Source: an uncultured Nitrososphaeraceae archaeon (GTDB lineage: Archaea > Thermoproteota > Nitrososphaeria > Nitrososphaerales > Nitrososphaeraceae). From it: 28,288 nucleotides of DNA. The DNA is taken from the NCBI GenBank assembly GCA_963837175.1, contig CAWIMJ010000006.1, positions 1 through 28,288 on the forward strand, written 5' to 3'. The notes under the pieces are model-generated. The model did not search any database, was not told the DNA's origin, and saw nothing but the letters and a program-made list of their open reading frames with translations. The translations under genes and the position numbers were made by a program. The first letter of the stretch is position 1, and every line of letters starts with the position of its first letter. Positions 2,097-26,997 of this stretch are shown here, one piece after another.

Positions 2097-4034
2097 ATGG
2101 GTGGCAGTACAATCAATCCAGCAGCTATTAATTTAAAAGTTGGTTTTGAAATCCACCAGCAATTATCCACTAAGAGCAAGCTATTTTGTGATTGTCACTG
2201 CGAAGAGACTGAAAAATATGGTTTTAACTTTATTCGCAAGTTGCGGCCAACTCAAAGCGAACTTGGCATTTATGATCCTGCAGCGCTTTTTGAATTCATG
2301 AAAATGCGTACCATAAAATATCATGCCACCACAGGTTCTAGTTGCCTTGTAGAGGCAGATGAGGAACCACCACATGAAGTTAATAAAGAAGCAATTGAAA
2401 CTGCATTGATATTTTCCCTTGCGCTCCAGTCTAAGATCATAGATGAGATTCATGTCATGCGTAAAATCGTAATTGATGGATCGAATACCAGTGGTTTTCA
2501 GCGTACTATGTTGGTTGCCGCTGGAGGATATCTGAATATAAACAATAAAAAGGTTGGTATACAAAGTATTTGTCTCGAAGAAGACGCAGCCAAGCTTATT
2601 TCAGATGATGGAACAATTAAAGAATATGGATTAGATAGATTAGGTGTGCCGCTAGTTGAGATTGCGCTTGAGCCAGTAACTGGGAAACCCGAAGAAATTG
2701 CAGAAATTGCACTCACTCTGGGCAGGCTATTACGAGCAAGTAAAAGAGTTGCCAGAGGACTTGGTAGCATCAGGCAGGACATTAATATTTCACTAGATAA
2801 CGGCGCAATTGTAGAGGTAAAAGGTGTGCAGCGTCTTGATCAGCTGGTTAAAGTAATTGAATATGAAATGCTCAGGCAACATGGTTTGATTCTAATTGCT
2901 CAAAAACTAAAAAGAGATAGAAAACCCGAAGAAATTGTAATTGGAGACAGAATTGAAGATATAACAGATATTCTAATAAAGTCACACTCCGACATAGTAA
3001 AAAGGTCACTTGCTGATAAGAATGGCGGTATTTTCAAGGCCATCAGAGTAAAAGGTTTTGGTGGCATAATAGGCTTTGAGCCATACCCTGATATTAGAAT
3101 AGGAAAACATCTAGGCGAATTAGTTAGATTTTACAGTCTAGGAGGAGTATTACATTCTGACGAGTTGCCAAACCATGACATCACAGCGGAGATGGTTGAA
3201 GCAGTTAGAAAGAAATTAGACATAGTCGTAGGCACGGATGCTTTCGTAATTGTAGGCGGACCAAAAGATAAGGTAGAATTTGCAGTGGAAGCTATAACTG
3301 AAAGATTGAAAATGACGATAATAGGCGTACCTGCAGAAACACGCGCAGCAACATTGGAAGGTAAAACTTTTTTCAGCAGACCAAGGCCTGGAGCAGCGAG
3401 GATGTATCCTGAGACAGATATACCGCCCATTCCAATAGACAATTCATTACTTAACTCGTTATCAAGCAAAATACCGAAATCTTGGGATGATAGCATTAAA
3501 ATTCTTGCTGAGAAATATAGTTTGAATAAAAAGATTGCAGAGCAGATTTTTGATTCTAATTATTTTACTGCCTTTGAGAAAATTGTAGCCTCAGTAAAAA
3601 TAGAGCCAACTTTTGTGGCATCAAAACTTACTGAAGATCTTGTTAATTTTGAGCGACAAGGATTTGATACAATGCTATTGACCGAAGACATTCTTATGGA
3701 TGTCTTCAGGAAGCTTGATACGAGTATCATAGCAAAGGAGTCAATAGTTTTAATTTTTGAAAAGATCTTGAGAAAAGAGGTTAAAACAGTTGAGGAAGCA
3801 ATCACAGCGCTTGGAATAACATCTATTACCGATCAAGAATTGAACATGGCAATTGATAGAATTTTGGAACAAAATATATCAATTATTAGAGAGAAAGGAA
3901 TTGGATCAAGCGGAATGTTGATGGGTCGAATTATGGCCATTCTTAGGGGCAAGGTAGATGGTCAAAAAATTAATTCAGTGTTAAGAGAAAGGTTAGAGCA
4001 GAAGATTAAAGCTAACAGAACAATGGAACAATAA
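2097..4034 (+). CDS. gatE: Glu-tRNA(Gln) amidotransferase subunit E
   Basis: GFEIHQQL, MRKIVIDGSNTSGFQRT, LEEDAA, LDRLGVPLVEI, RPRPGAARMYPETDIPP, and the HSDELP insertion domain; paired with gatD. Confidence 0.97.
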   Translation: MGGSTINPAAINLKVGFEIHQQLSTKSKLFCDCHCEETEKYGFNFIRKLRPTQSELGIYDPAALFEFMKMRTIKYHATTGSSCLVEADEEPPHEVNKEAIETALIFSLALQSKIIDEIHVMRKIVIDGSNTSGFQRTMLVAAGGYLNINNKKVGIQSICLEEDAAKLISDDGTIKEYGLDRLGVPLVEIALEPVTGKPEEIAEIALTLGRLLRASKRVARGLGSIRQDINISLDNGAIVEVKGVQRLDQLVKVIEYEMLRQHGLILIAQKLKRDRKPEEIVIGDRIEDITDILIKSHSDIVKRSLADKNGGIFKAIRVKGFGGIIGFEPYPDIRIGKHLGELVRFYSLGGVLHSDELPNHDITAEMVEAVRKKLDIVVGTDAFVIVGGPKDKVEFAVEAITERLKMTIIGVPAETRAATLEGKTFFSRPRPGAARMYPETDIPPIPIDNSLLNSLSSKIPKSWDDSIKILAEKYSLNKKIAEQIFDSNYFTAFEKIVASVKIEPTFVASKLTEDLVNFERQGFDTMLLTEDILMDVFRKLDTSIIAKESIVLIFEKILRKEVKTVEEAITALGITSITDQELNMAIDRILEQNISIIREKGIGSSGMLMGRIMAILRGKVDGQKINSVLRERLEQKIKANRTMEQ

Positions 4035-8560: not shown

Positions 8561-10018
8561 CTAGTTTGTAAAGAATTTTTTTGTTTCTCCTAGCATTAGC
8601 ACCTCTGCTGCTGCGATCTTGACAACTATGGGCAAATCGCACACAATCTTTCCAATAGATAAACAATGGCGTTGGGGCAACGTTCTTACTATCGACCTAA
8701 CAGTATCATTATCTGCTAAAGACACTTTAGATATCTTGTCCAAGTCTGTATCGTTTGTAAAATTGAAGAGGAATATATTATCTACTTGTCGATAAATTCC
8801 ATCGCCGATAGCATCTGGCTGGTTTGTAATAAATGTTGTATAGATTCCAAAGTGTCTCATCCTAGTAACAATGTCTTCCCAATACGTATCCCTGACATAA
8901 AGATGAGCTTCTTCGGCAAATAGAAATATAGGTGGAATTGCTGTTTTCTCTAATAAGTCTACCAGTTTAGTCAATATTAGTTCTACAATCATTCTTCTTA
9001 CAATAGGCGCTGCTTTTCCCATGTTGACTATTAGTGCCGAACCTTTACGGTTTCTTGCAATCACGTTTTCAAACCTCAGATCATCGCCATCGCCATTATT
9101 AGAAAATAATTTAGAGCTATGAATTACATGATATCTTGAAATAAGTGCATCCCTTATCAATTCATTGATATTCCAAGTATTTATTGCATTGCCTAAAGCT
9201 TCAATTCTTAATGACTGTTTACTTTCAAGCGAATCCCATATTCTAAAAAATTCACGTAAGGATGCAGTGGGGGTATCAAGTGCATTTCTAAGCATACTAG
9301 ATACAGCTGTCTTGCCACAGTAATCAAGTGAGAATTTGAGTCCATTTCCAGGTTCCAGTACCATTATTCGATCCTTAATTGATGAAGGGGTTCCATCATG
9401 ATTCCAAGCTAGGCCACTATATTCATTGTTAAGATCAAATACAATTACAAATGCTCCATGTTGGACTAGTGTTTTAACTAGCATTTTGGAAAGATGAGAT
9501 TTGCCTGATTCTTTTTTCCCAGTAATAATATTTAGTCTGCCATCTAGGTCCTCTGCATAGATCTCGAATTCTTCATTTTCTGCCCCAGCGTCGCCAATTG
9601 GAATAGGAAAAATTCCTGTCCTTCCAAGAAAAGAGCATAGTTCAGAAATCTTTAACCGTCTTATTTTAGAATATACCCTTGATGGAAGCCATGTGACATC
9701 GCTTGATAATTTGCTTGATGAATCTATGGCAGCCCTTATTTTAGTGTGAAACAGTCTTGCATCTCTGATCATTCTTGAGAGACTACCAATATTGAGAGGA
9801 TCATGCAAATTTTCCATACTTGAAGCATTTACTACTTCATCCTTAACAATGTCCTCTATCAGAGATTGGGAGGAAAGATATTCCTCATCATAGATCTGAA
9901 CAATCATCTTTCTCTTTGAATTTTCATCTTCAATCAACAAATAATCACCCTTACTAGCTGTATCTGTTTGCATCGCTATCATAATTAGTTCGTTACCATT
10001 TTTTGATAAAATTTTCAT
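8561..10018 (-). CDS. herA: HerA/FtsK-family ATPase (HerA-like helicase)
   Basis: N-terminal HAS-barrel-like region (KGDYLLIED), Walker A GKKESGKS, VFDLNNEY, Walker B FAEEAH, RMRHFG arginine finger and TNQP. Start overlaps the nurA stop (ATGA). Confidence 0.85.
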   Translation of the reverse strand: MKILSKNGNELIMIAMQTDTASKGDYLLIEDENSKRKMIVQIYDEEYLSSQSLIEDIVKDEVVNASSMENLHDPLNIGSLSRMIRDARLFHTKIRAAIDSSSKLSSDVTWLPSRVYSKIRRLKISELCSFLGRTGIFPIPIGDAGAENEEFEIYAEDLDGRLNIITGKKESGKSHLSKMLVKTLVQHGAFVIVFDLNNEYSGLAWNHDGTPSSIKDRIMVLEPGNGLKFSLDYCGKTAVSSMLRNALDTPTASLREFFRIWDSLESKQSLRIEALGNAINTWNINELIRDALISRYHVIHSSKLFSNNGDGDDLRFENVIARNRKGSALIVNMGKAAPIVRRMIVELILTKLVDLLEKTAIPPIFLFAEEAHLYVRDTYWEDIVTRMRHFGIYTTFITNQPDAIGDGIYRQVDNIFLFNFTNDTDLDKISKVSLADNDTVRSIVRTLPQRHCLSIGKIVCDLPIVVKIAAAEVLMLGETKKFFTN

Positions 10019-11046
10019 ATTGGTATCGATCCAAGCAGAGTTCTGCGAATATCTTCCGATGCAAGCTCTATTACATCATAGTTATTCAATACATGACTTC
10101 TAAGACATGATATCTCGGTACTAGTAAAGGTCGAAATGTGATGTGCAAGTCGCAATGTCTCAGGATATCCTCCTGCAATTGAATCATTTCCAAGTAACTT
10201 TCCGAGGGTTTCGTTTATGTTACCATTATTTGTAACAATATCTGCACGCAGTACATGACTATTATTGTTTCCAAACTTTATAAGAAGGTTAGTACCTATA
10301 GTATTTCGAATTAAGCTTTTGACAATCATTTCCACATTCATATAGGCTGGACTGCGGATCTTTGTGAGAGGACTAGATACTCTATCCAGAATTTTAATAT
10401 TAGTACTTTTGCTGATCCCCACTACCGAATTCTTATAAAGTAAGCAATTTTCTGCTACGTTGATGATACCCTGAGTCTTATTCTCAAACAAAGATGATTT
10501 CAATGAACCATCTACAAGAATTATGGCTTTTGTAAAATGACTTGAAAGTTCCATCTGGATTGCTCTCTCTACTCGTATTCTAATTAATCGTTTGGCAGAC
10601 TCACTATCGAATAAGACAAGCTTTGCTAATCTATGATCAAGTTCTGATTGCTTTATAGATTCCTCGCTCAAATAGAACAATAGTGGACCAATTTTAAAAT
10701 GCATTAATGCATGTTCAGCCACTGATATTGTTATTCCACTTTTTACCGCATAAAGAACACCATCCTCGGTTTCTGCAATTTGGATGCTGCTAGAATCAAT
10801 TGCAGCAACGATCGTATTCTCCTTAATTGGTTGAATAGTCATTATTGTTTCTGCACAATAAGGGTTGGGCCTTTTACCCCAACCTTCTATCGGAACAAGA
10901 TTTTTCTCATCAACACTGAAAATAATTTTTTTTCCTCTCAGTACTCGATGAAGTTCACTTGGCAAACAATGTCCAAGCGTTCGGTCAAACATATAGCCAA
11001 TTTTGGTCAAATTTATGTCATTTGGAATTTTTAACTGTGTTGCCAT
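10015..11046 (-). CDS. nurA: NurA-family nuclease
   Basis: AAIDSS, ILVDGSL, VGISKST and GYPETLRLAH are NurA motifs; translationally coupled to herA. Start uncertain: ATG 11046 preferred, with 11073 or the track's 11139 as alternatives. Confidence 0.85.
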   Translation of the reverse strand: MATQLKIPNDINLTKIGYMFDRTLGHCLPSELHRVLRGKKIIFSVDEKNLVPIEGWGKRPNPYCAETIMTIQPIKENTIVAAIDSSSIQIAETEDGVLYAVKSGITISVAEHALMHFKIGPLLFYLSEESIKQSELDHRLAKLVLFDSESAKRLIRIRVERAIQMELSSHFTKAIILVDGSLKSSLFENKTQGIINVAENCLLYKNSVVGISKSTNIKILDRVSSPLTKIRSPAYMNVEMIVKSLIRNTIGTNLLIKFGNNNSHVLRADIVTNNGNINETLGKLLGNDSIAGGYPETLRLAHHISTFTSTEISCLRSHVLNNYDVIELASEDIRRTLLGSIPI

Positions 11047-11135
11047 GTTGTTCAACAATAGAATAACGTCCATATTTATTAATGTTGTGCAACATGGACA
11101 ATATGAATAGGCAACAAGTTTATGTTGATCAACTG
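11045..11135. promoter_or_regulatory. Three palindromic operator-like sites, consensus ATGTTG-N2-CAACAT
   Basis: ATGTTGttCAACAA 11045-11058, ATGTTGtgCAACAT 11082-11095 and ATGTTGatCAACTG 11122-11135, between divergent gene starts. Confidence 0.6.
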
Positions 11136-11157
11136 TCAACTGTCAACGATTGTATAA

Positions 11158-12729: not shown

Positions 12730-13730
12730 TTACGATACTCCAATCCATCCTAGCCTACGGAAATACCAAATCATCAATAATGCAGAGAATGTGGAGATTA
12801 TCAATATAACTATCAAAGTTGTATACGTACCAAAGAAGGTCCAAGAGCCTGTTTCAATGCCGCCAGGTAAATTGACATTCATTCCATAAAAAGCGCCTAT
12901 CACTGTAGCAGGAATTGACAAAGTAAATAGAATTGTAAGAACTGCAAGTATTTTGTTAGTTTTTTCGGTGCTAAGCATAAAATCTGTATCTTTATAAATT
13001 TCTATAGTCTCTTTAGATTCTTCTAGAGCTTCTAAAACCTTATCTATATGATCTTTTACGTCATCAAAGTAAAGTGTAAGGTCTTCTTCTGAGAATTTCT
13101 GTATATCCTTAGTTATCTCCAATACAATTCTTTTTAGTGGAATGACAACGCGTCTGAGTGTTGTTATTTCTCTTCTTAAAAGCGAAATCTCCTTTGCAAC
13201 TGCTATTTTATCATCAAATACAGCATCCTCTATATCATCCAGATTTCCTACTACTTTCATCAATATATGTAAAAGATCATCCACTAATACATCGATTATA
13301 CTATGAAGCAGATAGCCAGATGACCTTCCCATTAAGGCTTGCCTCTGCTCATAACTTTTCTTGCAAATTTGAAACATCTCTGTTAGTGGCTTAAGGTCAC
13401 CCTGATGCACAGTAACCAAATAATTCATTCCTGCAAAGATTGATAATTGGCTAAATCGAGGTATTCCTTTTTCTTTGTGCGAAGTCGGAAAATGTAATAT
13501 AATAAATATATGATCTTCATATCTGTCTATCTTTGTAATATTAATTTTAGAAAGGCAATCTTCAAGATTTAGCTCATTGAAAGGAAATTTTCGTCAAGTA
13601 TATCTATTTTATTGCGAGTAGGTTTTTCAATGTCTATCCACAAATTCCCGTTATTGTTTATTTTTTCTACATGTTCTTGGATAGAACCTTCTTCCATTTT
13701 AATACATTTTCCGATAGACTTTTCTACCAT
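12730..13730 (-). CDS. corA: CorA-family Mg2+/Co2+ transporter, frameshifted near 13594
   Basis: YGMN signature and two C-terminal TM helices. The N-terminus (LWIDIEKPT) lies in another frame and joins FPFNELNLEDCLSK...KIDRYED if one base is restored near 13590-13596. Confidence 0.9.
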
Positions 13731-13766
13731 TAGAAGCTTGCCCTTATTTTTGACAATATGTAGACC

Positions 13767-14250
13767 GGCTCTGTTAACTTAACAAAAAAAATAGCTATAG
13801 ATATCCTTTTCTTTATATTGATATATGCAAAAAAGAAATAGAACATATACCAAAGATATTGGTTATGGGTTTATACTTATAATTTCTTGGTCTTATAGAA
13901 ATATCACAAAAGCATTATCAAAGAGATTTATAAAAAGAAGTCATGTTTCTATATGGAAGTGGGTTCAAAACTACAAACCAGAAAGAATATCTTTCAAAAG
14001 AAAAAAATATCAGAATTTATAATTGATGAAACACACACAGATTAAAGTTGGACAAGATTACTTTAGAGATTTGGGTTATTATTGACTCTGCAAATAAGAC
14101 TGTCCTTGGAATCCACATTCTTTAGAAAGGAATATGCTTATTACAGAAGAATTTCTGCATTCTATATGATAAACAAATACGGAAAACATCCAGTCTCAGA
14201 CGGTGGTACGTGGTATCCTCAAACTGTTAAATTTATTATAAGGTTAAACA
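13767..14250 (+). mobile_element. Truncated, degenerate IS6-family element
   Basis: Left end GGCTCTGTTAACTT at 13767. Transposase fragments RNRT, RSHVSIWKWVQ, ISEFIIDET, IKVG, ERNMLI and KYGKHPVSDGGTWYPQ in shifting frames. The C-terminal part and right end were not found. Confidence 0.82.
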
Positions 14251-15059: not shown

Positions 15060-17415
15060 TTACATTCTCAAATTATGCATAATGCAAAGATCTTTTTTAA
15101 ACGCATCTAATTCTATAGGAAGGGCAACATCAATCGGATCTTTTAGTGAAAGTGGCTTTCCAGTTTTCCTTGAAATGGATTGTTTTTTCTTATTCCATAC
15201 TCGCGAATTGAAATCGATAATATGTTGAGTATACTTCCTCATCTCTAGTTGATATTTTTGCTTTTGGGGCATACCTAGTAGATGAATGCTTTGCGTACTG
15301 TACATCTTTGTCCAGAGCTCTTCTGTGATAAATGGACATAGAGGCGCGAGCAATTTTAAAATTGTCGATAGACACTTGTGCAAAGTAAATATAGCAGATT
15401 TCTGACCGAGAGAATCATTTATATCATATACGCGACCTTTTACCATTTCTACATAATGGGCAGCAAATAGATTCCAGGTAAATTCTCTAATTGCATTGGC
15501 CGGAATAAAGAAGTTAAAATCCTCATAACCTTTTTCGCATTCTTCAACCAGATTTGACAATTCTGCAAGAATCCATTTATCTGAGGCAGCAAGCTCGTGT
15601 GTAGGAGCTTCTAAAATAAAATCAAACGATGAGAGAAATCTACCTAAATTCCATAGTTTGGAAAGAAACTTTTGTGCGCTTAGAATTCTCTGTTCTGAAC
15701 ATCGAAAATCATGACCCAAATTAGCCTCAATTGCAGACCAAAACCTGAAAGTATCTGCGCCATAGCGATGAACGATAGGAAATGGATCAATTACATTACC
15801 TTTACTCTTGCTCATTTTTTCGCCTTTTTCATCAACTCCATATCCCATAATCCAAGCATCTGACCATGCAAGTTGACCTGTCAATTGGTAACAGCGCAGC
15901 ATCGTGTAATAAAGCCATGTTCTTATAATATCTTTTGCTTGGGGCCTTATTTCTGTCGGATAGGTGTGTTTATAAAATTCTTGATCACTTTTATATTTTG
16001 TAATGAATAATGGAGTAATGCTAGAGTCCATCCAAGTATCAAATGTTCTATCTTCACCAATAAATTCAGTATTAGCACACTTATTACATCGTTCAAATGG
16101 CGGCTTTTCTTTCCATGGCCTATAATATTTACCCGGTTTAGGAAGATTCGGAGTTTTGCAATTGTTGCAATACCATATTGGAATTTCTGTGCCATAGAAC
16201 CGTCTTCTTGAAACAGGCCAATCTATTGCTACTGAATCTAGCCAATTGAGCAGGATTTGTTTATGTGTCTCAGGATGGAACTTAATTTTCGTTGTAAGCT
16301 CTTTTAACTGCGGGATGAAATCTAGCTGCTTTACAAAATAATCTTGTAATGGTATTATTTCAATTGGTGTTTTGCTTCTCTCACACAACGGTGTCCTATG
16401 CATTATGTTTTCTTCCTTTGATAAAAGTCCTGCATTTTTCAAATCTTCAATAATTCTTGTTCTTGCCTGGTTTACCCGAAGGTTACTATATGGTCCGGCA
16501 GCACTAGTAGTCATTCCATTTGAATTTAAAGCCACTATTTCTTTCAATCCTAACTCTCGGAATAATTGTACGTCATTCTGATCACCATAACTACATACCA
16601 TTACAGCACCAGAACCAAAGTCAGGTTTTGCTGAAGGATGTGGAAGAATTTTAACTTCTCTATCAAATAGAGGCAATACCGCATGTTTACTTTGCAGTCC
16701 TAAATAACGCTCATCTTCTGGATTTACAATAATAGACTGACATGCAAAAAGTAATTCTGGCCTAGTAGAAGCAATTATAATACTCTCGTTAGTTTCTCTA
16801 ATTTTGAAATTCATATAAATAAGTCTAGTTGGGATATCTTCGTAGGTAATCTCTGCATCAGCTATAGTTGTCCCACAATCGGGACAATAATTATTCGGTC
16901 TATTTGCTAGATAAACAAGTTCACGATTCCAAAGCTCAATAAAAGTGCTCTGAGTTAAAGCTCTGAATTCATCGGAATCAGTACGGTAATATTCTTTAAA
17001 ATTGCCACTTAAACCCATATTTTTCATTATCTGAATCATTTCAGCTTCTAGATCGTCAAGAGAAACCCTGCAAAGATCAAGAAATTTTTCCCTGTCCATC
17101 TGACGCATTCTCACTTTATGCTTCTTCTCGGTGTAGATTTCAACTGGTAGACCATTTCGGTCAATACCAATAGGAAACATTACATTATAGCCCATCATTC
17201 TAGCAGTCCTAGCAATCATATCTATTTGCGCATAGTGTGCTGCCAGCACCTATGTGCCATGGCCTTCCAGACGGATAGGGTGGTGGAGTATCAATTACAA
17301 AAGTCTCCTTTTCTTTTTTTATTGAAAATTTGTAAATATCATTCTCTTCCCATCTTTTTAGAATAATCTGCTCCACCGCAGGATTCCAAGATTTGTCTTT
17401 GATTTTAGGCTCCAT
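15060..17415 (-). CDS. valS: Valine--tRNA ligase, with a +1 frameshift at 17243-17244
   Basis: IDTPPPYPSGRPWHIGA, STRPELL, GSGAVMVCSYGD, DWPVSRRR, FDTWMDSS and KMSKS. Removing one G from GGT GCT G GCA GCA CAC joins the two track ORFs into WHIGAAAHYAQIDMIAR. Confidence 0.95.
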
Positions 17416-17438
17416 TTCGTTGTTTCATTTAATGCATA

Positions 17439-17899: not shown

Positions 17900-18562
17900 C
17901 TACTCTAGTCCTGTGTTACCACCGTCATTATTATTATTATCTTTAGTAACTAGATCACCATTCTCTCCATCTAATGGAAGATTGAAACTATTTGGCACAA
18001 AATCCTCTGCTGAAGGTATGAGAGTATTTATAGCAGTACTATCTGAAGTAGAAGAATGGCTTATATTTTCGCAGGCGGTCGAATTAGTCAAAATATCTCC
18101 TCCTTCAGTAGCGTTAAAATCTGTAACTGTATCAATTCCTACACCACAGTTAAAAGTATCTTTGCCAGGTCCTCCTGTCAGTGTATCATTACCACGATTT
18201 CCAATTAATATGTCATTATCATCATCGCCAAATATCACATCCTTTCCAGTACCACCTCTAATTCTGTCATTTCCTTTGTCACCATGGACGGTATCATCCC
18301 CTTCGCCACCTCGGATTTGATCACCCGCCTCTAGACCAGATATCACATCATCTCCTCCATAGCCATATATGTAATCTTTATCCGCAGTACCAGTTAGTGT
18401 ATCAGGTCCTGGAGTTCCTGTTACATTAAGTGCCCATACAGTTGTTAGAGAAGGTACTGGTAATATTTGGCCAATTGGGGATATTGTACCACTTAGTAAT
18501 ATTGCTGTAGTTGTCGTAGTTCCAATGATAATTAATGCCAACGTTAAAACTTCTTTTGACAT
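17900..18562 (-). CDS. Secreted or anchored protein with RTX-type (hemolysin-type) Ca2+-binding repeats
   Basis: Hydrophobic N-terminus followed by consecutive GGxGxD nonapeptides (GYGGDDVIS, GGEGDDTVH, GGTGKDVIF, GGPGKDTFNCGVGIDTVTDFN). ATG 18562 is preferred over 18622. Confidence 0.88.
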   Translation of the reverse strand: MSKEVLTLALIIIGTTTTTAILLSGTISPIGQILPVPSLTTVWALNVTGTPGPDTLTGTADKDYIYGYGGDDVISGLEAGDQIRGGEGDDTVHGDKGNDRIRGGTGKDVIFGDDDNDILIGNRGNDTLTGGPGKDTFNCGVGIDTVTDFNATEGGDILTNSTACENISHSSTSDSTAINTLIPSAEDFVPNSFNLPLDGENGDLVTKDNNNNDGGNTGLE

Positions 18563-19285
18563 ATTAACGCCTTTTATAATATTACAACAATTTATACCTA
18601 TCAATGGCAACAAACTTGTCATAGTTTGTGTATATATTTTGACCTTGTTAATACAAGAAGACGGCAGGTTTGGTTAACGTGATCTAGAAAGTGGTAATAA
18701 GGAAGAAGAGAAGGGAATTAAAAACATCAAATTATTTAAAATATTCTTAGAGATATTCTAAAACATTTATTATAGATTTTATCCAATCAGGACTAAATTT
18801 AGAACTATATAACAATAAAGCTGGCTATCAGTAAATATTTGCATATCAACAAAGCATGATGATTTAGAAGTAGCTCGTTTTCGAAAATTTTTATTTCAGG
18901 TATCCCGGTATCCATAAGTATAACAACAACAAATCAAATAATAATAATAATAACCATAATCATAATCATCTTCTTCTTCGTTATCATCATCAAAAGCCTC
19001 ACCTATGGATTCATCGCTCCTACTTTATCTCTGATCATCATCAGCATATATTTTGGATAATCTTTTTTTACCTATCCTATCATTCTATATCAAATCGTAG
19101 AAATTTGTTATTTTAATGAGCGAGGATGGAAAAAGTGTAGTATAGTAATAAGAAATATTTATTTATCCTATTTTTAAAAAGAGTCGTCGAAAAACATATG
19201 TTTAAAATGACAATATTTTTTAGCTAACACATCTTCATCTTACTAACAACATATTTGTTAAACTATGGAGAATTAGGATAATAGA

Positions 19286-21216
19286 TTGAAATATTATGTT
19301 GGTTGTTCTGACTGGAAGAATCAAACATGGGCTAAAGATTTTTTTCCAACTACTCTAGAACCCGAAAATTACCTTGCTTACTACTCGAATATTTATGATT
19401 TTGCAGAAGTTGACTTAAGCAGTTATAGAAGTTGTACTAATACTAGTATCGATGGCAGACTCCCCACTAAATTCGCTTTTAGAAAATGGGCAAAAAATAG
19501 TAATGATAATTTTCGTTTTACTTTAAAATTACCAGCAGAAATTATAAATAACAATAACAACGAGAGTAGCATTGGAAATTTTTTAGAAGAACTTGCCCCG
19601 CTTGAAGAGAAGATTATTGCCATAGTAATAGAGCAGCCAGAATCATTGACTTTAAAAGATGGCAGAGAATGGCTTGATGAGATTTTGGATATTTGTAACT
19701 ATCATGGACTATTCTGTTGCTTTTGAATTTAATCACTTTTCCTGGTTTCAGGATTTAACCTATCATATTTTAAAAAAACATAATGCTCGCTCTAATATGG
19801 TCAGATAATCAATATCCTTATCATCATCCTGTCGTTACTGCTGATTTTCTATATCTTAGAATTACTGAAAATGAAAAGAAATGGATTGAAAAAATAAAGG
19901 AAAAAGAAAGAGAAGAAGCAGGTAATCTTGACTCTGTGATCTTTGTTGTTAATGCACCCACAAAAGTAAACTCTGTATTAAAGATACTAAATTTGCCTGT
20001 GAGAAAATGCGATTATAATCAATGGACAGGTAAGGGGATAATGTGTGTTGACTTGGATGCATTTTTTCCTTCTTGTGAAGAACTACGCGATCCAATGATA
20101 GTAGGAAAACCACACGCTGTAATTATGACGGAGCAGAAAGAGAATATAACTAAAGGTGTAGTTGCCTCCTGTTCATATGAAGCAAGAAATTTCGGTGTCA
20201 GGTCGGCTATGTCTCTTTTAAAGGCAAAAGAATTATGTCCTGATCTTGTCCTAAGACCAGTAGATATATCATATTATCGTCAGGTTTCAGAAAAAGTTAT
20301 GAACATATTAGAAGAATATGCAGATGTTTTAGAACAATCTAGTATAGATGAGGCATATTTAGATTGTACAAACAAGATGATGAGAATAATGATAACTGAA
20401 ACAACTGATACTGCTACTGCTACTATTACTACTGTTGAACAATATGCAGCGGTAATTAAAAAGGCAATTAAAGAACGATCTGGACTTTTAGCTTCTGTAG
20501 GAGTAGCATCTACAAAATCTGCTGCAAAAATTGCATCTGATTTTCAAAAACCTGATGGACTCACCGTTATCTATCCTGATCAACTACAAAAGTTCTTTGA
20601 GCATCTAGGAGTTGAAAGAATATCAGGAATAGGTCCTAAAACTCAACAAGTTCTGAAGGAGATGGGAATTGAAACTATAGGGCAGCTTGCAAAATATGAT
20701 GTTCAGAAATTAATAGAAAAATTTGGCAAAAAGAATGGAATTTGGATGTGGCATGTGGCTAATGGTCGTGACTATGAGCCTGTTATGCCAAGAGAGGATC
20801 ATGTATCCTTAAGTACTGAACAAACACTTGAGTCATTTACAGGAAATAGAGAAACGATACTCAAATCTCTGAATCAATTAGTTGATGAAATTTATGAAAG
20901 AATAAGACGGCAGAGATATGAGTTTAAAACAGTAGGTGTGAAGCTTGTTAGATCTGATTTTTCAATTGAAACTAGGGAAACATCATTTTCTAACTTTCAG
21001 AATAAACGAGAAAGTATTGCATCTGTTATTGAAGGTTTATTGGATAGATTTTCTTTTGTTGGTTCAACATCATCACCATCATCATCAACAACAACAATAA
21101 CAAAAACATTACCAACTGTTAGAAAAGTCGGAATAAAAGTATCAAATTTAATTCGAATAGAAAAGAAGAAGCCACCGACCCAAAAAACATTGTTAGATTA
21201 TTTTGATCCAATATAA
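19286..21216 (+). CDS. dinB: DUF72 domain - Y-family DNA polymerase IV (DinB) fusion, interrupted by two +1 indels
   Basis: DUF72 motifs YVGCSDW, LAYYS, AEVD, FRFTLKLP, (shifted frame) AFEFNHFSWF and VVTADFLYLR. DinB motifs VDLDAFF, SYEARNFGV, SIDEAYLD and AKIASDFQKPDG, with C-terminal PIP box QKTLLDYF. Extra bases near 19709 and 19788; the repaired protein is 642 aa. Confidence 0.88.
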
Positions 21217-21480: not shown

Positions 21481-21678
21481 TCAAGAATAATCAGTAAATA
21501 TACTACTGATATAAGCAGCTAATTCGTCTCTTAACTGGATGACCTTTGCTCGTTTATCTCCATCAAGATTAGTATATAGCAAAGCATCTAATCCTTCTAC
21601 AAGATACTGGATATTTGGTAATGTTAGAAGAGTGTTATTATTAGTGGCTTCTTCTTTTTCTTCTCCTTTACTGCTCAT
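21481..21678 (-). CDS. Small hypothetical helical protein
   Basis: MSSKGEEKEE...IQYLVEGLDALLYTNLDGDKRAKVIQLRDELAAYI; ATG overlaps the end of the upstream gene by 11 bp. Confidence 0.45.
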   Translation of the reverse strand: MSSKGEEKEEATNNNTLLTLPNIQYLVEGLDALLYTNLDGDKRAKVIQLRDELAAYISSIFTDYS

Positions 21679-22267
21679 CGGCATTACCTTCTTCCTGAAG
21701 AGATCCAGGATTTTTAGCTTCGATATTTGCATCTTTTACTAAGATTTCTACTGTGTCTATCGCTGATCCTGTTTGATTATTATTATTAATAACAGCTTGA
21801 TTGTCAGATACTTCCAATGCGAATGTATATTTTGTATCATTAGGATAATTTGGAGCAACAAAGGTAGGATGGGCTGTATTATTATCATTTAATATGACAG
21901 CAGGACCATCCGTTTGTCTCCATAAATAACTGGCAGTACTTGCAACATTATTGCTTTTGTTGTTGTTACTACTGCCGTTCAATGTAATTATTGTTCCTTC
22001 TAACACTGTTTTGTCTGGACCAGCATTAGCAATATATCCATTGGAAGGGCAGCATGATGGCGATGGTGATGGTGGTAATGGTGTTGCATTGTCCATATCA
22101 GTCGGATTAGCTGTTGCATTAGTCCTTGATTGATTGGCCATATTTTGTGCTCGTACTTCCTGTATCAATTGACTACTAGCTGATAATAACGATGACGCTA
22201 TAAGTATGCCTGAAATAAGAGTGCCAAAAAGAATTGCCCCTTGTTTTTTCTTTTTCTTCTTATTCAT
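21668..22267 (-). CDS. Secreted protein with one PKD/K319-like Ig domain
   Basis: Basic plus hydrophobic signal peptide, then IANAGPDKTV, ITLNGS, SYLWRQTDGP, PTFVAP and YTFALEVSD. Confidence 0.85.
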   Translation of the reverse strand: MNKKKKKKQGAILFGTLISGILIASSLLSASSQLIQEVRAQNMANQSRTNATANPTDMDNATPLPPSPSPSCCPSNGYIANAGPDKTVLEGTIITLNGSSNNNKSNNVASTASYLWRQTDGPAVILNDNNTAHPTFVAPNYPNDTKYTFALEVSDNQAVINNNNQTGSAIDTVEILVKDANIEAKNPGSLQEEGNADEQ

Positions 22268-25774: not shown

Positions 25775-26991
25775 TTAACCAAAAGTAAATGTGTACATCT
25801 GGAACCCTTTTCCCTTTACGTCTATTATAAGTGAGTGCCAGCCATACCCTTCATGCATAGATATGTTGTATAGTCTTTGTCCATCTACTACTAATTTACC
25901 TTGATCCGAAAGATCAATTCCTCTTCCTGATTTATTTGTTAGCGCCGATCCATCTTCAGAGATTGATAGTTCTGCTGCTGCTACTCCTCCTTTCTCTCCT
26001 GCTACTATGTTTGCAGACTTTGCAGAGTAGACTAACGCAATACGACCAGTATCACTTTGCAATTCCATATTATCAGCGTTATTTTTCCAATCACCAATAA
26101 GATAAAGGGCGTTGGGTTTAATATTAGATCGCTGGGGAACAGAGTATGTTACAATTTGATTTGGTTTGAATCCTTCAGGATTTCCAAGTGGTGCTCTAGC
26201 TAACTGATATCCAAAGTAGAGTTCAGGCGTATTTACTTTTGCGAAATCTACAGTCTGGACATTTTTAGGTGTAGTTGTGTTTTTATTCATGTTTAGATTT
26301 ATCTTAGATATACCTGTTTGAGCAGCACGTTCAGTAAGTAATGACTGGATTACCTTTTCAACTTCAGCATAACCACCTTCACCTATGTGATCATATCTTA
26401 TGTATCCTTCATTATCAATTAGATACTTTCTTGGCCAGTAATTATTTTGATAGGCATCCCAGGTTCCTTTGTCATTATCCTGTAGAACTGGATACTTTAT
26501 TCCATATTTTTGGACAGCTGCCTTTACATTGTCAATATTTTTCTCAAATTCAAATTCAGGAGAATGAATGCCAACTATTACCAATCCCTTGTCAGCATAT
26601 TTCTCATTCCAATCTACTAGATATGGAATAGTCCTTATGCAGTTAATACAACTGTATGTCCAAAAGTCAACTAGCACAACCTTTCCCTTTAGATTTTTAA
26701 GGTTTATTGGTTCTGTATTTATATAACCTGTAATTTTGGCAAACTCAGGTGCCTTTTTGAATTGGGACTTGTCCATTTGGAATTGAGCCTTCTCAATCTG
26801 ACTACTGCTCTGCTTGCATTACCATTTTTATTTATTGTTGCTGGAATGAATTCTGTTGTACTACTACCTGAACTTGATAAGGAAGATACAGCTTTATTGA
26901 GATCAGGACTATTAAAGTATACTGCAAAACCTACAATAAGAGAGACAACTGCAATTGCCATGAGAAGTGCACTGATATTATCTTTATTCAT
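25775..26991 (-). CDS. Membrane-anchored DipZ-type thioredoxin (TlpA/ResA-like) with a DipZ C-terminal domain, frameshifted near 26809
   Basis: GKVVLVDFWTYSCINC, GIHSPEF, NNYWP, HIGEGGY, TPELYFGY and YTFTFG. The TM anchor of ORF 26719..26991 joins in frame (NASSSSSQIEKAQFQMDKSQFKK) if one base is restored. Confidence 0.9.
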
Positions 26992-26997
26992 TATAAT

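Follow-up and report, generated by a model that had tools for sequence, protein, structure and literature searches.

In a 28,288-nucleotide stretch of DNA from an uncultured Nitrososphaeraceae archaeon (contig CAWIMJ010000006.1 of assembly GCA_963837175.1; hereafter the window), the gene at positions 19286–21216 of the + strand encodes a Y-family DNA polymerase of the DinB type with a previously undescribed N-terminal module, a DUF72 domain. The DUF72–DinB fusion is real and is common in Nitrososphaeraceae. The locus is very probably the Nitrososphaeraceae form of archaeal DinB, both in its architecture and in its origin from a pair of neighboring genes in which DUF72 precedes DinB. The explanation that we prefer on balance combines a fused bypass polymerase, its origin from this gene pair, a clamp-associated role for DUF72, and two artefactual frame breaks in the window copy.

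As it stands in the window, the gene is divided into three open pieces in three different frames, at 19286–19726 (146 residues), 19659–19808 (49 residues), and 19783–21216 (477 residues). A database search with the third piece retrieved an intact protein of 642 residues, P0001, and alignment by tblastn places residues 1–141, 142–167, and 168–642 of P0001 on consecutive stretches in frames 2, 3, and 1, the last of these at 19789–21213 (identities 139/146, 26/26, and 472/475; 95–100% per piece). The sole unaligned bases between the matched pieces are a C at 19709 and a C at 19788. The original prediction, made from the sequence, had proposed that removal of one base near each of these positions restores a contiguous domain, and the alignment identifies exactly one extra C at each. 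The join peptide given for the repaired frame, YSVAFEFNHFSWFQDLTYHILKKHNA, the repaired length of 642 residues, and the tail QKTLLDYF (followed by DPI) likewise agree exactly with P0001.

In terms of domain content, the Pfam profile of DUF72 (PF01904) matches intact P0001 at residues 20–236 over profile positions 1–214 of 217 (E = 1.1e-30, 107.8 bits), and the polymerase domain IMS begins at residue 254; IMS_C is also found, which places all three domains of the proposed fusion in one chain. Because DUF72 spans residues 20–236 and IMS follows from 254, the end of DUF72 shares one uninterrupted frame with the polymerase in the window, and the fusion, as had been claimed, does not depend on repair of either break. 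Piece by piece, the first part of the gene matches DUF72 profile positions 1–107 of 217 (E = 3.3e-15, 57.2 bits, with a cut-off of 25.3) and the second matches positions 106–136 (E = 0.0019, alone under the family cut-off); a scan of the open reading frame 19783–21213 by itself gives no DUF72 match at E ≤ 0.1. The E-values of DUF72 and IMS in this gene are far beyond chance.

Intact fused relatives are abundant. The 120 best database hits obtained with the polymerase piece nearly all combine PF01904 with PF00817 and PF11799, and 108 of them are at least 560 residues long; the named hits are labelled “DNA polymerase IV” by their sources. Proteins of 600–760 residues with intact DUF72, IMS, and IMS_C are abundant in Nitrososphaeraceae, with record titles that name Ca. 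Nitrosopolaris, Ca. Nitrosocosmicus, Nitrososphaera sp., and many metagenome-assembled genomes of the family. Within the family, 18 of 24 genomes have DUF72 and DinB in one open frame of 490–770 residues, the source genome of the window (G000) not counted and the 490-residue frame being cut by a contig end. Of the remaining genomes, G010 has a distant DinB only, and G016 (72% complete) gives no DinB match. With one genome taken per species, DUF72 is present at 57 of 76 scored loci; 80 species loci were taken, four of which gave no frame with both catalytic motifs, and fused sequences had contributed to the profile that served for the scoring. These counts settle the concern, raised with the original prediction, that intact fused homologues might not exist.

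The fusion was also sought more broadly. When 1.84 billion representatives were searched, the best 150 contained just five full-length DUF72–DinB proteins, P0009, P0087, P0121, P0122, and P0123, accompanied by fragments. A fusion in other lineages was not seen among these best 150, below which weaker fusions could rank, and five other long hits of that search that were scanned with Pfam have other architectures with no DUF72.

The frame breaks were compared over 19300–20300 with contigs of four public runs, of which X1, X2, and X4 are DNA runs from soil, each belonging to a different study, and X15 is an RNA library. In X1, X2, and X4, the contigs covering both sites have one base fewer at 19706/19708 and one fewer at 19788; the contigs of these runs are at least 99% alike to the window, save one X1 contig at 90–95%. 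The same contigs read AG at 19640–19641 where the window reads GA, and therefore restore an arginine of P0001. The contig from X15, which marks presence in that RNA library and not transcription, spans 19761–19997 and so the second site only; the base at 19788 is absent from it. The window version of the break sites occurs in none of the four public runs over this interval, and the window’s three differences from the public contigs all fall in a stretch of 150 bases, the rest of the kilobase being identical.

Breaks of the same kind occur in three more genes of the window, each of which lies in two frames here and in one frame in the syntenic region of the same-genus genome G005. The gene of a 786-residue class I aminoacyl-tRNA synthetase (15060–17424, − strand) is split near 17240 in G000, with the first ~60 residues in another frame than the rest, and is intact at 786 residues in G002, G003, G006, and G005, the source of the query. 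A gene for a 395-residue AhpC/thioredoxin-like protein (25778–26994, − strand) is split near 26800 in G000 and intact in G002 and G006, and a CorA transporter gene (12730–13781, − strand) is split near 13590 in G000 and intact in G001; the G003 copy has stops as well. Paralogues of the AhpC/thioredoxin-like and CorA genes elsewhere in G000 are split too (C16:5293–6337 and C57:235440–236376).

Because near-identical public contigs lack the extra bases and other genes of the window are broken only or mainly in G000, we conclude with good confidence that the two single-C breaks at 19709 and 19788 are indel errors of this assembly. It is unlikely that an essential tRNA synthetase would be broken in a free-living archaeon, and the break near 17240 in the synthetase gene is likely to be an error of the assembly too. 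The original interpretation is thus borne out in part: the fusion holds and has abundant intact relatives, and the breaks are most likely not a feature of the organism. For annotators, the breaks serve as a warning of indel errors in this assembly.

Two other accounts of the breaks were weighed. If they were real, the DUF72 part would be inactivated in this strain and the polymerase alone would be made from the ATG at 19783 or 20041, as a step towards the DinB-only genes that occur naturally in related genera. Such genes are found at 19 of the 76 scored species loci and in G008, G013, G014, and G018, where an orthologous DinB (49–70% identical) in a frame of 385–454 residues has no DUF72 upstream; a remnant of the last DUF72 helix is still visible in G013. 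It fits this account as well that both breaks fall within DUF72 and that the polymerase frame stays open. We nevertheless consider it improbable, given that neither extra base is present in three DNA runs whose sequence over the kilobase is in other respects at least 99% identical, that the differences are clustered as described, and that other genes including the essential synthetase are frame-broken in G000 only. Programmed ribosomal frameshifting could be suggested by the presence of two +1 shifts in the same direction only 79 bases apart. This mechanism was rejected as having next to no probability, since a single frame is seen in near-identical natural sequences and in all examined relatives, position 19709 does not lie in a slippery run, and the same kind of break appears in the other genes of the window.

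The origin of the fusion is suggested by genomes of other families of the same order. In 5 of 16 such genomes (G026, G030, G033, G038, and G040), a free-standing DUF72 gene sits directly upstream of a free-standing DinB gene, on the same strand and 8 to 30 bases away, and this gene order, common to all five, is the domain order of the fusion. The paired DinB proteins have 357–406 residues, and the paired DUF72 genes have stop-to-stop frames of 273–334 residues. In each of the five genomes, the paired DinB is the genome’s best match to the fused DinB (39–40% identity). A two-residue insert (L.P.DYL) is common to the fused and the DinB-adjacent DUF72 and is found in none of the other paralogues.

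A tree of 28 DUF72 sequences places the 13 fused domains in one group (support 100/99) and the 5 DinB-adjacent domains in another (91/95), with the longest inner branch (100/99) setting 10 other paralogues apart from both; a short divergent paralogue and two database proteins truncated at the N terminus were left out. As the tree is unrooted, with no outgroup and with the three groups meeting at one node, a sister relationship between fused and adjacent DUF72 is consistent with it and is not proven. The DinB-only genes retain the linker motif QW(I/T)GKVI, which together with the helix remnant in G013 indicates, as far as these sequences can tell, that DUF72 was lost secondarily and repeatedly. 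The source genome itself holds two full free-standing DUF72 genes with high Pfam scores and a second free-standing DinB (31% identical, 404-residue frame), none adjacent to another (C57:24228–25262, C57:61510–62217, and C55:11687–12388). Two further free-standing DUF72 proteins of 393–395 residues (L014:1402–2580 and L021:303–1487) have a C-terminal extension of ~130 residues that is rich in cysteine and histidine; a zinc-finger domain was considered for this extension and dropped, as no Pfam match was obtained.

The DUF72 proteins encoded next to DinB end in a motif that resembles the box by which proteins bind the sliding clamp PCNA, the PCNA-interacting peptide (PIP). The five tails read QASLGDF, QTSLTDF, QKGLGEF, QRSLDAFS, and QQTLFGS. 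For one DinB-adjacent DUF72, 110 of the 120 best database homologues have a PCNA-box-like end of the QxSLxDF type, with the pattern Qxx[LIMV]xx[FYW] in the last 14 residues; 106 end exactly on the motif, and the remaining 10 end in a shortened Q..TL.G form. Elsewhere in these DUF72 proteins, the background frequency of the motif is 56 in 2217 windows of 14 residues. Clamp-motif-like ends are also seen in three of ten DUF72 paralogues that are not adjacent to DinB (L019, L018, and L015, with SQSSLTEY, KLLTDFL, and KITDF, respectively). In the fused polymerases, the pattern lies within the last 16 residues of 119 of 120 homologues. These tails suggest that the fused protein or the free-standing DUF72 may bind PCNA.

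A complex between the PCNA of G038 and its own free-standing DUF72, each partner given as an alignment, was predicted with a score of 0.59 (median of three runs; best control 0.35), which is a weak pass and concerns the free-standing DUF72 of G038, not the fused protein. Partner pLDDT (predicted local distance difference test) is at least 87, and the runs agree in at least 81% of contacts. In calibration, 58 of 80 solved complexes pass the mark, as do 2 of 110 mismatched pairs; the passes at 0.60 or less comprise only 7 of the 80 and both mismatches.

The fold of the N-terminal domain was modelled with the L002 sequence, whose identity to P0001 is 90% across 235 columns. The model (pLDDT 86.3; predicted template-modelling score, pTM, 0.85) has eight strands, and its best Foldseek matches are the DUF72 entries 1vpq, 1ztv, and 1vpy (template-modelling score about 0.73). 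Alignment with VIA-align gives Z = 21.7 for 1vpy (root-mean-square deviation, rmsd, 2.4; 204 residues aligned) and Z = 21.3 for 1vpq (rmsd 2.7; 218 aligned), after which the DUF72 entries give way to a plateau of xylose-isomerase-like barrels at Z = 11–13. Outside DUF72, the folds closest to the model are those of sugar-phosphate isomerases, epimerases, and glycerophosphodiesterases. In this model, the fused DUF72 keeps the DUF72-type triose-phosphate isomerase (TIM) barrel.

We further compared 15 fused sequences with 15 free-standing DUF72 proteins of the same order. The fused rows keep the glutamate after strand 2 (E41; 13/15), the glutamate (E147; 13/15), histidine (H150; 12/15), and serine and tryptophan (S152 and W153; both 15/15) of the motif E-F-x-H-x-S-W, a conserved threonine (15/15), and the arginine of Y-x-R (R191; 13/15). 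A larger set of 60 fused proteins shows no variation at E41, W153, and Q155 and at least 90% conservation at K81, E147, H150, S152, and R191; W246 and G248 of the linker are conserved as well. The ratio of nonsynonymous to synonymous substitution rates (dN/dS) over 10 pairs of five same-genus genes is 0.26–0.56 for DUF72 and 0.05–0.20 for DinB, and the fused DUF72 is thus under purifying selection.

These results can be drawn together as follows. The gene encodes a single polypeptide of ~640 residues that comprises a divergent DUF72 TIM barrel, a 17-residue linker, a Y-family polymerase, and a PCNA-box-like tail. It very probably arose from the DUF72-then-DinB gene pair, which persists as two genes in other families of the order and in which the separate DUF72 carries a PCNA-box-like tail of its own. 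In the proposed scheme, DUF72 would be a clamp-associated DNA-damage factor acting on the same substrates as DinB, and after fusion it would ride on the clamp tether of DinB, such that one tail could serve both halves. The fused DUF72 would be a DNA- or lesion-binding or regulatory module rather than a nuclease, with catalysis traded away.

That DUF72 and DinB were already neighbors in the same order before fusion indicates a shared function, and the link between DUF72 and damage tolerance that had originally been drawn from the fusion is strengthened both by this gene pair and by the PCNA-box-like tail on the separate DUF72. The lesion-sensing or processing module first suggested as an example of this link would be one form that it could take. 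We lean slightly towards a role of DUF72 in DNA damage alongside DinB, and, given such a role, the fused domain would probably be non-catalytic. A more specific proposal is offered tentatively, at somewhat less than even chances: that DUF72 is a sliding-clamp-bound DNA-damage processing factor that partners translesion polymerases and that, in the case of DinB in ammonia-oxidising archaea, was first a PIP-tailed neighbor and then became fused as a non-catalytic module for recognizing lesions or DNA.

A number of observations weigh against this account. No experiment on any DUF72 protein was found in the literature, for which reason the function of DUF72 given here is entirely inferred, and a strain-private mutation at the break sites keeps a small probability. 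The DinB-only loci and the four DinB-only genomes show that the DUF72 domain is dispensable in some lineages. The association is also a local one: the gene pair is present in only the 5 of 16 genomes of other families, and none of 30 DinB loci in a phylum-wide sample of 121 genomes has a match to either of two DUF72 profiles within ±1.5 kb, so that the pairing is local to this order in the genomes searched. PIP–PCNA complexes are well represented among solved structures, and likeness to these may have raised the score of the predicted complex, itself a weak pass. In the structural comparison, endonuclease IV (5zhz; Z = 11.2, rmsd 3.6, 197 residues) ranks 40th in VIA-align as one of many barrels, and UV-damage endonuclease is not among the 50 rows listed by Foldseek and VIA-align, which excludes neither enzyme.

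The sequence of the fused domain and the full-length model add to these points. The fused domain does not share the residue invariance of free-standing DUF72 in ..TH, EFRH, YxRxHG, FNNH, and SxFY. The histidine of ..ITH and the arginine of EFRH are lost from all 15 fused rows, the glycine of RxHG is kept in only 2, the histidine after NN is deleted in 14, and SxFY is lost. The free-standing DUF72 of the gene pair, of the type found in G038, retains every one of the invariant residues. The same replacements are seen against Tm1631, which reads FRFHGRN where the fused query reads LRITENE. The Pfam score of DUF72 is about 110 bits for fused and about 200 bits for free-standing domains. The full-length model has a mean pLDDT of 81.5 and a pTM of only 0.55, so that no defined contact between barrel and polymerase is seen.

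Together, the purifying dN/dS and the loss of invariant residues show a domain that is maintained by selection and altered at its presumed active site. An active nuclease in the fused form is doubtful because family-invariant residues are lost and because the domain is absent from 19 of the 76 loci. A fusion without mechanistic meaning, in which a stop codon was lost between neighbors and the DUF72 half decays slowly as a passenger, would account for these lost residues, for a dN/dS in DUF72 about twice that of the polymerase half, for the repeated loss of the domain, and for the want of confident contact between the halves. We regard it as unlikely, as the dN/dS of DUF72 is still in the purifying range, conservation across the 60 fused proteins is complete or reaches at least 90% at E41, K81, E147, H150, S152, W153, Q155, R191, and other residues, the barrel model is a confident one, and DUF72 and DinB were already same-order neighbors in five genomes of other families.

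DUF72 might instead act on free nucleotides or a small phosphate compound, for example by cleaning or supplying the polymerase’s pool, and not on DNA. The conserved pocket of Tm1631 is described as resembling nucleotide and phosphate binding sites in the available text of PMC3828134, and the isomerases, epimerases, and phosphodiesterases found as nearest folds would agree with a substrate of this kind. The PCNA-box-like tail on 110 of 120 homologues of DinB-adjacent DUF72 points rather to work on DNA at the clamp, as does the link of DUF72 to polB2 neighborhoods reported in the portion of PMC11791011 that was available, and we judge a nucleotide substrate to be quite improbable. Any activity of DUF72 on DNA, and the loss of catalysis on fusion, are what we infer within the preferred account of a clamp-associated damage factor.

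The polymerase half is complete and, to judge from its sequence, apparently active. IMS (PF00817) is matched over its full profile (1–148 of 148) with 147.7 bits (cut-off 23.2; E = 3e-43), and PF11799 (IMS_C), PF21704, and PF21999 are matched with 56.9, 38.2, and 35.2 bits, respectively. The catalytic motifs VDLDAFF and SSIDEAY are present in the open reading frame, and D-x-[DN]-[AS]-F-[FY] and S[IVL]DE occur together in 116 of 120 homologues. At the second acidic position, 92 of these 116 have asparagine and the window copy has aspartate; some eukaryotic Y-family enzymes also carry asparagine there. The palm contains a low-complexity insert at P0001 residues about 365–380. Confidence in the full-length model is low in the linker (242–244), the palm insert (371–377), and the tail, which has a short helix at 635–638; the tail with QKTLLDYF is predicted to be disordered, which would place the motif at an accessible terminus. 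Among other proteins examined, P0145 and P0226 (1124 and 1112 residues) have two IMS domains in tandem and are apparently double Y-family polymerases, and P0219 (633 residues) has the C-terminal half of a Peptidase_M54 (archaemetzincin) right before a complete DinB, possibly as a fusion or a merged gene call.

The coordinates of the gene’s parts are collected in Table 1. With regard to the start, a TAG at 19274–19276 in the segment 19265–19285 closes the upstream frame in the window and in P0001, which leaves the TTG at 19286; relatives such as P0004 have an upstream ATG start (MEDKDNRLKYY).

Table 1. Parts of the DUF72–DinB gene in window coordinates, with residues numbered as in P0001
Feature	Position	Strand	Evidence
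DUF72 N-terminal part, residues 1–141, TTG start as in P0001	19286–19708	+	tblastn, Pfam
GA in window, AG in public contigs; E instead of the R of P0001 (EQPES vs EQPRS)	19640–19641	+	contigs of X1, X2, X4
Extra C, first frame break, frame 2 to frame 3	19709	+	tblastn gap; base absent at 19706/19708 in X1, X2, X4 contigs
DUF72 middle part, residues 142–167	19710–19787	+	26/26 identical; profile 106–136
Extra C, second frame break, frame 3 to frame 1; brings ATG at 19783 in frame	19788	+	absent in X1, X2, X4, X15 contigs
DUF72 C-terminal part, residues 168–236, in the polymerase’s frame	19789–19995	+	coordinates from tblastn alignment
Linker of ~17 residues, conserved QW(T/I)GK motif, internal ATG at 20041	19996–20046	+	alignments, model
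Y-family palm and fingers (IMS), catalytic motifs VDLDAFF and SIDE	20047–20541	+	Pfam IMS, E 3e-43
Helix-hairpin-helix thumb (PF21704 and PF21999), residues 442–495	20611–20772	+	Pfam
Little finger (IMS_C), residues 507–626	20806–21165	+	Pfam, E 3.3e-15 (window piece), 5.5e-15 (P0001)
PCNA-interacting-peptide-like motif QKTLLDYF	21181–21204	+	read from sequence
Stop codon	21214–21216	+	read from sequence

The polymerase gene is flanked on the − strand by genes for a protein with four RTX calcium-binding repeats and a signal-like N terminus (17900–18622) and for a PKD-domain protein with a hydrophobic N terminus (21668–22267). About 8 kb away, HerA-like (DUF87) and NurA genes (8561–10018 and 10015–11139, − strand) overlap by four bases as a DNA-end-resection pair. 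Further upstream, at 2097–4034 of the + strand, lies a gene for a GatB/GatE-type amidotransferase subunit of 645 residues with a GAD insert.

DUF72, or YecE, is a large family of bacteria and archaea with three crystal structures and no tested function. A DNA-repair role was proposed for it in silico (PMC3828134, PMC4939058): in the accessible parts of these papers, an endonuclease IV-like DNA site is predicted in Tm1631 (PMC3828134) and a two-Mg mechanism is modelled with Lys73 as base (PMC4939058). DUF72 genes are reported to be enriched near polB2, and their fold is described as a close relative of UV-damage endonuclease, in the available text of PMC11791011. A Y-family polymerase is merely noted in ammonia oxidisers in the excerpts seen of PMC5797428 and PMC10811736. 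We found no description in the literature of a DUF72–DinB fusion or of a clamp motif on DUF72; the supplementary data of PMC11791011 may list DUF72 neighbors. Prior links of DUF72 to DNA repair consist of in-silico docking and polB2 enrichment only, and to these the present analysis adds three independent genomic lines, namely the covalent fusion with DinB that many ammonia oxidisers of soil carry, the corresponding gene pair in sister families, and the clamp-type tail in which the free-standing partner ends. The bypass polymerase of a major group of soil nitrifiers has an unusual form of ~640 residues. The function of DUF72 becomes testable, in that one may ask whether it binds PCNA and whether it binds or cuts damaged DNA alongside DinB.

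Compared with Dpo4/Dbh and bacterial Pol IV, the window protein has the same IMS palm and fingers, helix-hairpin-helix thumb, IMS_C little finger, D-x-D and SIDE motifs, and C-terminal clamp-type motif. Dpo4 binds PCNA through a C-terminal tail of this type. Unlike these enzymes, the window protein has an N-terminal DUF72 barrel of ~240 residues and a linker, and, unlike Dpo4/Dbh, its type has the low-complexity insert in the palm. The D-x-D of the Dpo4 type is shared by the window copy, whereas most of its relatives read VDLN (92/116).

Compared with the DUF72/YecE family (PF01904; 1VPQ Tm1631, 1VPY, and 1ZTV EF0366), the fused domain has a Pfam match above the cut-off and an eight-stranded barrel in its model, and it keeps the glutamate after strand 2, the lysine of FxFxxK, E-F-x-H-x-S-W, and the arginine of Y-x-R. 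It differs in lacking the histidine of ..TH, the arginine of EFRH, the His-Gly of RxHG, the NNH motif, and SxFY, and in having variable low-complexity loops and an attached polymerase. In contrast to DinB-adjacent DUF72, it has no clamp motif of its own. With endonuclease IV and UV-damage endonuclease, the fused DUF72 would share the xylose-isomerase-like TIM barrel seen in the model; there is no sequence similarity to these enzymes, many unrelated barrels score the same or higher, and nuclease activity is reported for no DUF72 protein in the papers found.

A further parallel is provided by the DUF72 genes of PolB2 translesion operons, as described in the available text of PMC11791011, since in both cases DUF72 is tied to a translesion polymerase by genome context. 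The Nitrososphaeraceae system differs from those operons in that the partner is a Y-family and not a B-family polymerase, in that the association takes the form of a direct upstream pair and of a covalent fusion, and in that a clamp motif is present on DUF72.

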